Origin: Escherichia coli
GTDB lineage: Bacteria; Pseudomonadota; Gammaproteobacteria; Enterobacterales; Enterobacteriaceae
DNA: 64,000 nt
NCBI RefSeq assembly: GCF_003334405.1
Contig: NZ_QOWM01000002.1
Direction: 5' to 3' (one strand)
The position numbers and the translations under genes are program-made. This document shows, piece after piece, positions 17,371-17,601 of this stretch. A model generated the notes under the pieces. The model was not told the origin of the DNA. It did no database searches and saw nothing but the letters and a program-made list of their open reading frames with translations. Numbering within the stretch: the stretch's first letter is position 1; each line of letters begins with the position of its first letter.

Positions 17371-17601
17371 ATGCATTTCGCTCAGCGAGTTCGCGCCCTG
17401 GTTGTGTTGAATGGCGTGGCGTTATTGCCTCAATTTGCCTGTAAACAGGGGCTTGCGAACGGTGAACTGGTGCGCCTGTTTGCACCGTGGAGCGGCATAC
17501 CCAGACCGTTGTATGCTTTATTTGCGGGGCGAAAGGGGATGCCTGCCATTGCGCGATATTTTATGGATGAGTTAACCACGCGGCTTGCCAACGGGGTCTG
17601 A
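17371..17601 (+). pseudogene. yqfE: remnant of the C-terminal domain of a LysR-type regulator
   Basis: 76 aa frame resembling only the C-terminus of LysR effector domains, with no N-terminal HTH; corresponds positionally to the K-12 yqfE fragment between argP and rpiA. Confidence 0.5.

Follow-up and report, generated by a model that had tools for sequence, protein, structure and literature searches.

The yqfE reading frame between argP and rpiA of Escherichia coli: a probable deletion scar of a LysR regulator gene and an azoreductase-like gene

Introduction

The stretch of Escherichia coli DNA analysed here (the window, 64,000 nucleotides) holds a short open reading frame between argP and rpiA that raises a simple question: is a frame of 76 codons whose product ends like a LysR-type regulator a gene, or what is left of one? 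Gene order around it is that of E. coli K-12, with scpA (13988–16132, minus strand) and argP, an intact LysR-family regulator (16336–17229, minus strand), on its left, and rpiA (17657–18316, plus strand) and then serA (18572–19804, plus strand) on its right. The two direct neighbours were assigned from annotation, in the case of argP that of identical E. coli loci, and both gave 100% matches by tblastn. The 427 nt that separate them contain the flagged frame (17371–17601, plus strand), present in the program-made ORF list, with an ATG at 17371 and a TGA at 17599–17601. An earlier note on this DNA had proposed that the frame resembles solely the C-terminus of LysR effector domains, has no HTH upstream, and looks like a decayed regulator gene left beside argP, possibly by a duplication or a deletion.

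Results

The frame corresponds to a pseudogene annotated in K-12

Comparison with the K-12 MG1655 genome (NC_000913.3) gave a 100% match for positions 17230–17420 of the window and placed the frame at 3059381–3059611, where the same sequence is labelled "pseudogene yqfE b2915"; the window thus carries that locus, with the same sequence at the same position. Therefore, yqfE is an already annotated K-12 pseudogene, an ordinary known deletion scar, an annotation that the earlier note had missed together with the chimeric nature of the frame. What is added here to the K-12 annotation is this chimerism, the exact breakpoint, the intact syntenic ortholog and the lost module to which it belonged, and a caution regarding purifying selection. 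In many other genomes, the PGAP pipeline calls the 76-aa frame as a CDS under varied names ("LysR substrate-binding domain-containing protein", "type 2 periplasmic-binding domain-containing protein" or "hypothetical protein"), and in some it is left uncalled.

A literature search on yqfE/b2915 returned nothing beyond incidental mentions. The gene is among those deleted in the genome-reduced strain DGF-298 (PMC10652928), and the yqfE_argP intergenic region is listed in Table 2 of the InvenireSRNA screen among the transcripts that may bind CsrA (score 0.64), on computational grounds only (PMC8144298). The latter region corresponds to positions 17230–17370 of the window; a search of 17100–17800 against Rfam detected no RNA family at E ≤ 1. 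Further along the chromosome, the K-12 annotation shows the ibsC/sibC type I toxin–antitoxin pair just past serA (NC_000913.3 3056851–3056991), the equivalent of which is expected at about 20030–20200 of the window by correspondence with positions 5834–5893 of locus L001.

Only the end of a LysR effector domain is present

The sole Pfam match of the yqfE product was to LysR_substrate (PF03466), with residues 15–72 aligned to positions 151–208 of the 209-position model (i-E 7.1e-7), whereas the NCBIfam matches, to the ends of LysR models such as AaeR, PRK14997 and YafC on the C-terminal side, were all below threshold. The match to LysR is far above the chance level, so the similarity claimed for the frame, which this formal search could have overturned, held. 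When the intact 298-aa ortholog described below was used as tblastn query against the whole window, only its residues 236–298 were recovered (17410–17598, 98.4% identity, E 3e-37); neither this search, which covered 17230–17660 for frame-shifted pieces, nor a permissive one of 17230–17420 revealed any further LysR fragment. An HTH was likewise absent from the frame and from 17230–17660, both by Pfam and by tblastn with the intact ortholog. Compared with that ortholog, which has an HTH_1 domain at residues 4–63 and covers positions 2–208 of the effector-domain model, a hypothetical yqfE product would be missing about 72% of the effector domain as well as the HTH and the linker helix, and therefore cannot work as a regulator of this family.

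An intact ortholog occupies the same position in a minority of E. coli strains

The parent gene was not apparent from direct searches with the 76-aa query, as a word-indexed protein search returned short fragments from Escherichia and Shigella only, and an exhaustive phmmer search returned full-length LysR proteins at no more than 54% identity. It was reached through a 92-aa variant (P0019) with a more LysR-like N-terminus, whose contig showed about 3 kb of extra DNA between argP and rpiA. In this long form, found in 233 of 5,426 complete E. coli genomes (4.3%), a segment of 3.2 kb between these two genes includes an intact 298-aa LysR gene. The example followed here, WP_000568126.1 of strain PapRG-06-5, is encoded at 3950–4846 of the corresponding locus (L005). 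Its residues 236–298 are 98% identical to yqfE, and both sequences lie directly 5' of rpiA with the same 55-nt spacer. The gene order in PapRG-06-5 is argP, a ferredoxin/ferric-reductase family protein (441 aa, minus strand), a DUF1471 protein (86 aa, minus strand), an FMN-dependent NADH-azoreductase (209 aa, minus strand), the LysR family regulator (298 aa, plus strand) and rpiA. In general, the intact LysR gene is divergent from an azoreductase-like gene, which is often followed by the DUF1471 and ferric-reductase-like genes.

The intact ortholog shows both domains of the family (HTH_1 at residues 4–63, LysR_substrate at 88–294) and a divergent azoreductase partner, whereas codons 1–235 and the promoter region are missing from the window. 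Its best NCBIfam models were NF011573/PRK14997, YafC and AaeR (169, 153 and 128 bits, respectively), scores far under the equivalog cut-offs of 380–470 bits, which places it outside these named families. The closest solved structures were 3szp and 3t1b, both deposited as "Transcriptional regulator, LysR family", with 3t1b_A aligned over residues 5–288 (E 3e-36).

These comparisons also bear on the proposal that the fragment derives from a partial duplication of argP. Beyond adjacency and common family membership, nothing points to such an origin. The BLASTP alignment of the ortholog with ArgP was restricted to 36 residues with 25% identity (E 0.016), the scores of the ortholog on the ArgP models (52–54 bits) stand against 169 bits on NF011573, and the fragment shares 98% identity with the C-terminal end of a separate gene in the syntenic position. 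A duplication of argP is therefore hardly credible, and the assignment of the fragment as an ArgP/IciA paralog, for which closer similarity to ArgP was the criterion, was rejected (54 vs. 169 bits). Of the two events that had been envisaged in the earlier note, the deletion stands and the argP-linked duplication falls.

With regard to the accompanying genes, the ferric-reductase-like gene (L005 1556–2881; about 956–2280 in L032–L034) contains the Pfam domains Ferric_reduct and FAD_binding_8 in a NOX-like architecture. It is intact in some E. coli; many long-form strains have it either broken up by frameshifts or with a part missing, and it is also split or partly deleted, upstream of DUF1471, in other Escherichia and in Pseudocitrobacter (L007, L008, L009 and L010). 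Since this gene is often broken even in long forms, the island as a whole appears to be decaying piecemeal.

The frame is a chimera created at a deletion junction

Alignment of the argP–rpiA interval with the long forms resolved it into successive blocks. The first one, adjacent to argP (17230–17285), is presumed to be the argP promoter and 5' region; it is common to short and long forms, with 96–99% identity to L005 1486–1541 and to L006, the locus of strain Santai, and blastn of 17100–17285, which includes the start of argP and its upstream 56 nt, matched L005 1356–1541 at 99%. It is followed by 44 nt (17286–17329) for which no significant nucleotide or protein match was detected in any long-form locus.

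Then comes, on the minus strand, the 3' remnant of the azoreductase-like gene (17330–17408), corresponding to about residues 182–207 of 209. The AzoR-like protein of L005 matched 17407–17330 through residues 182–207 (77% over 26 aa, E 1e-8), and at the nucleotide level 17351–17408 was 88% identical to L005 3250–3307, a stretch of the oppositely oriented azoreductase CDS close to its 3' end. Identity of the remnant to L006 and L008 was 91–93%, and 86–93% considering all long forms. The remnant reaches the natural C-terminus of the enzyme, ending in …AFNHGY where the long forms have …VFNHYL* and Salmonella has …AFNR*. No intact azoreductase with the K-12-type C-terminus was found in the protein collection, where the only matches were spurious ORFs of the same scar, and the divergence of the remnant is accordingly attributed to drift or to an unsampled allele.

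The LysR remnant starts at the next nucleotide and comprises codons 236–298 plus the stop codon (17409–17601, plus strand), as delimited by blastn, tblastn and Pfam. These 193 nt match L005 at 99.5% and the long-form Santai allele at 100%, and the identity continues into rpiA (17409–17760 vs. L005 4654–5005, 99.7%). The deletion junction was thus placed at 17408|17409 from the blastn breakpoints and the junction sequences against L005. Relative to the long form, about 1.35 kb is missing there (L005 3308–4653), including the 5' part of the azoreductase gene, the divergent promoter region and LysR codons 1–235. The 17 further short-form E. coli genomes sampled all had this same junction, which showed no clean microhomology, just a loose TTG(G/T) similarity.

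As a consequence of this arrangement, the ATG and the first 13 codons of yqfE (17371–17408, MHFAQRVRALVVL) are antisense azoreductase DNA. Because its start comes from antisense azoreductase sequence and its last 63 codons from the LysR gene, yqfE is a chimera of 13 antisense-azoreductase codons and 63 LysR codons.

The regulator is an old resident of the argP–rpiA interval

Intact or nearly intact copies of the LysR gene were also found in this position in other species, as expected for a decayed remnant of a LysR-type regulator. In Escherichia whittamii and Escherichia sp. E1V33, an intact gene lies directly 5' of rpiA (96% and 95% identity, respectively), whereas in Escherichia sp. MOD1-EC7003 (L010) it is present at 96% but frameshifted. 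An uncultured Pseudocitrobacter has the LysR gene (73%), a partial ferric-reductase gene and DUF1471, and the azoreductase gene is absent. Finally, Citrobacter portucalensis (LysR 68%) shows a two-gene arrangement, argP–azoreductase–LysR–rpiA. The presence of syntenic orthologs across Escherichia and Citrobacter indicates that the regulator is an old resident of this interval, and hence that the K-12 state is derived by deletion.

In a genome of Salmonella enterica (GCA_010557585.1), the whole four-gene cassette is located elsewhere in the chromosome (L018 2594–5915), adjoining DUF554 and an ornithine/lysine decarboxylase-type gene, with a LysR protein 71% identical. Its presence at a different locus indicates that the module moved as a unit at least once.

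This mobility, together with the rarity of long forms in E. coli (4.3%), could suggest the opposite polarity, with an ancestral short form into which a mobile cassette was inserted to give the long form; K-12 would then present an empty site rather than a scar. However, the short form retains the true 3' ends of two cassette genes on both sides of a single breakpoint, in the right order and orientation, so the K-12 sequence is no empty site. In addition, the syntenic intact copies of Citrobacter and Pseudocitrobacter, at 68–73% protein identity, imply a long residence of the module between argP and rpiA. We consider an insertion into an ancestral short form highly improbable, and the deletion is retained as the origin of the short form.

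The scar is polymorphic and continues to decay

Sixty hits taken at even steps down the ranking of the 5,426 genomes were typed by their match pattern. Thirty-nine were of the K-12 type, 18 carried an extra 45-bp deletion, two were long forms and one showed a rarer rearrangement. The extra deletion, seen as a two-piece match, removes an in-frame segment of 15 codons (17431–17475, from alignment of L016, L017, L030 and L031) and thus affects about 30% of E. coli genomes, O157:H7 among them. The one rearranged strain, E09, combines another deletion with an ERIC-like insertion of ~125 nt just 5' of the TATAAT that precedes rpiA, a type confined to rare strains. The same insertion was observed in two lineages, E09 (L002 1806–1925) and MOD1-EC7003 (L010, about 6898 to 7076), and its reverse complement contains GTGAATCCCCAGGAGCTTACAGAAGTAAGTGACTGGGGTGAG, presumably the ERIC/IRU repeat core.

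An alignment of 18 short-form E. coli genomes (the window and 17 others) showed that variable sites are unevenly distributed along the interval. None was found in the argP-proximal block (17230–17285, 0/56), while the 44-nt segment that follows (17286–17329) was the most polymorphic stretch of the interval, with 15.9%. The azoreductase remnant (17330–17408) and the LysR remnant (17409–17601) showed 11.4% and 10.4%, respectively, compared with 1.8% in the spacer before rpiA (17602–17656) and 2.9% in rpiA itself; thus, polymorphism in the scar was 4–5 times that of rpiA. Two of the 18 genomes have lost the start codon (ATG>TTG, M1L), and one of these two also has a premature stop at codon 5 (CAG>TAG, Q5>stop). 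Within the limits of this small sample of 18 genomes, such a pattern is one of relaxed constraint.

Allele exchange can account for the apparent conservation of the LysR tail

The LysR part of the scar contained 20 variable sites among the 18 genomes, 12 of them at third codon positions, and the raw counts were 13 synonymous to 7 non-synonymous changes. On its own, this synonymous excess would suggest purifying selection, and it is one of several observations in line with a translated, functional 76-aa micro-protein, acting for example by disturbing the oligomerisation of other LysR proteins and kept by selection. About two thirds of E. coli genomes keep the frame open, PGAP calls it as a CDS in many genomes, and a weak SD-like AGGGA (17357–17361) lies 9 nt 5' of the ATG.

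However, comparison with 11 long-form alleles revealed that nine of the 20 sites (eight synonymous and one non-synonymous) are also polymorphic in the intact gene. Restricting the count to the 11 changes seen in short forms alone gave 5 synonymous to 6 non-synonymous, which does not depart from a neutral expectation of ~28% synonymous (P = 0.17), so the excess disappears; the corresponding ratios were 12:1 in the intact E. coli LysR alleles and 18:2 in rpiA. The nine shared polymorphisms, together with the 100% identity to the Santai allele, point to allele exchange rather than to selection on the fragment. In this small sample, the LysR tail would still be swapping alleles with functional copies through homologous recombination over the shared LysR tail and rpiA. 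In contrast to the LysR tail, the azoreductase remnant is 7–14% off every intact allele; boxed in by breakpoints, it would have drifted alone. Judging from this contrast between both halves of the scar, functional copies would be able to recombine with it on the rpiA side of the breakpoint only.

Further observations also weigh against the micro-protein. The start-codon loss, the premature stop, the 15-codon deletion and larger rearrangements all segregate in E. coli, the fragment retains only 28% of the effector domain (positions 151–208 of 209), no promoter consensus was found in 17150–17720, the curators of K-12 labelled the locus as a pseudogene, and the gene is dispensable in DGF-298 (PMC10652928). 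Altogether, a selected micro-protein appears very unlikely, and yqfE is better regarded as a scar whose LysR part may be refreshed from functional alleles.

The 3' end of the scar may be retained as part of the rpiA promoter

The final portion of the frame departs from the general drift. A perfect TATAAT (17617–17622, plus strand), located 34 nt 5' of the rpiA ATG and preceded by a T-tract, is a candidate −10 box for rpiA, and the sequence TTTTTGTATATAAT is invariant in Escherichia, Pseudocitrobacter and Citrobacter. Among seven long-form E. coli alleles, no variation was found in 17548–17656, and in the 18-genome alignment of short forms only two sites varied in 17545–17656. Within the LysR remnant, one of 57 sites was variable in 17545–17601 compared with 19 of 136 in 17409–17544 (Fisher P = 0.009). 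It is probable, judging from this distribution, that the last ~55 nt of yqfE are constrained as part of the rpiA promoter.

A broader proposal is that scar DNA has been co-opted as a cis-regulatory element, with its 3' portion serving as the upstream half of the promoter of rpiA, which would explain the survival of the LysR piece. This reading is compatible with the deletion scar, as it concerns only why the remnant has been retained. Besides the low variation in both sets of alleles, it agrees with the invariance of the TATAAT and T-tract across four genera, with the −35 position falling in the last codons of yqfE, and with the preservation of TATAAT and the sequence downstream in every deletion or insertion variant seen. 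On the other hand, a consensus scan of 17150–17720, in which no intrinsic terminator was detected either, showed no sigma-70 promoter having a proper −35 and spacing, and in E09 and MOD1-EC7003 the ~125-nt insertion parts TATAAT from the 3' end of yqfE or of the LysR gene, so the sequence upstream of TATAAT is not indispensable. Moreover, constraint on the last ~55 nt leaves the retention of 17409–17544 unaccounted for. Hence, we regard promoter co-option as a plausible but tentative reason for the retention of the remnant, somewhat short of an even chance.

Discussion

The homology, the junction, the intact orthologs, their synteny and the pattern of polymorphism were observed directly, and on this basis the frame at 17371–17601 is, with high probability, yqfE as a non-functional deletion scar of a LysR gene and an azoreductase-like gene, presumably without translation of its own. 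The partial homology of yqfE to LysR proteins and the intact ortholog in the same interval of its relatives, found in Escherichia, Citrobacter and Pseudocitrobacter, agree with the remnant that had been proposed in the earlier note.

The ancestral argP–rpiA interval would have carried the 298-aa LysR gene on the plus strand, divergent from the azoreductase-like gene, followed in many lineages by DUF1471/BhsA-like and ferric-reductase/NOX-like flavoprotein genes. Later, in the ancestry of most E. coli, the deletion of ~1.35 kb would have taken away the common promoter region together with the 5' part of each divergent gene, fusing the 3' end of the azoreductase gene (17330–17408, minus strand) to LysR codons 236–298 (17409–17601). 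The 76-codon frame would owe its start to a fortuitous ATG of the antisense azoreductase DNA that is in phase with the LysR tail. The scar DNA now appears to drift, as seen from its high polymorphism, additional deletions and start-codon loss; the last ~55 nt are a likely exception. As for the number and order of deletions, we infer that the short form could have arisen through one event from a two-gene, Citrobacter-like ancestor or through two from a four-gene ancestor; the single deletion is slightly favoured because the azoreductase remnant reaches its natural C-terminus and lies about 100 nt from argP, compared with 60 nt in Citrobacter.

It is unlikely, although somewhat less so than the selected micro-protein taken alone, that the chimeric frame is expressed as a small protein or that rpiA or argP has come to use the scar as regulatory DNA or RNA. 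If this were the case, the persistence of the scar in about 95% of E. coli would be due to selection and not to a delay in its deletion.

The significance of the locus is small, as it concerns a known pseudogene in the best-annotated bacterial genome. Still, the 76-aa CDS, which PGAP calls in thousands of E. coli genomes, should carry a pseudogene flag, and the locus illustrates how a pseudogene that exchanges alleles with functional copies can give the appearance of purifying selection. For E. coli itself, the argP–rpiA interval represents a presence/absence polymorphism for a small redox-type module made up of a LysR regulator and azoreductase-like, DUF1471 and ferric-reductase/NOX-like proteins.
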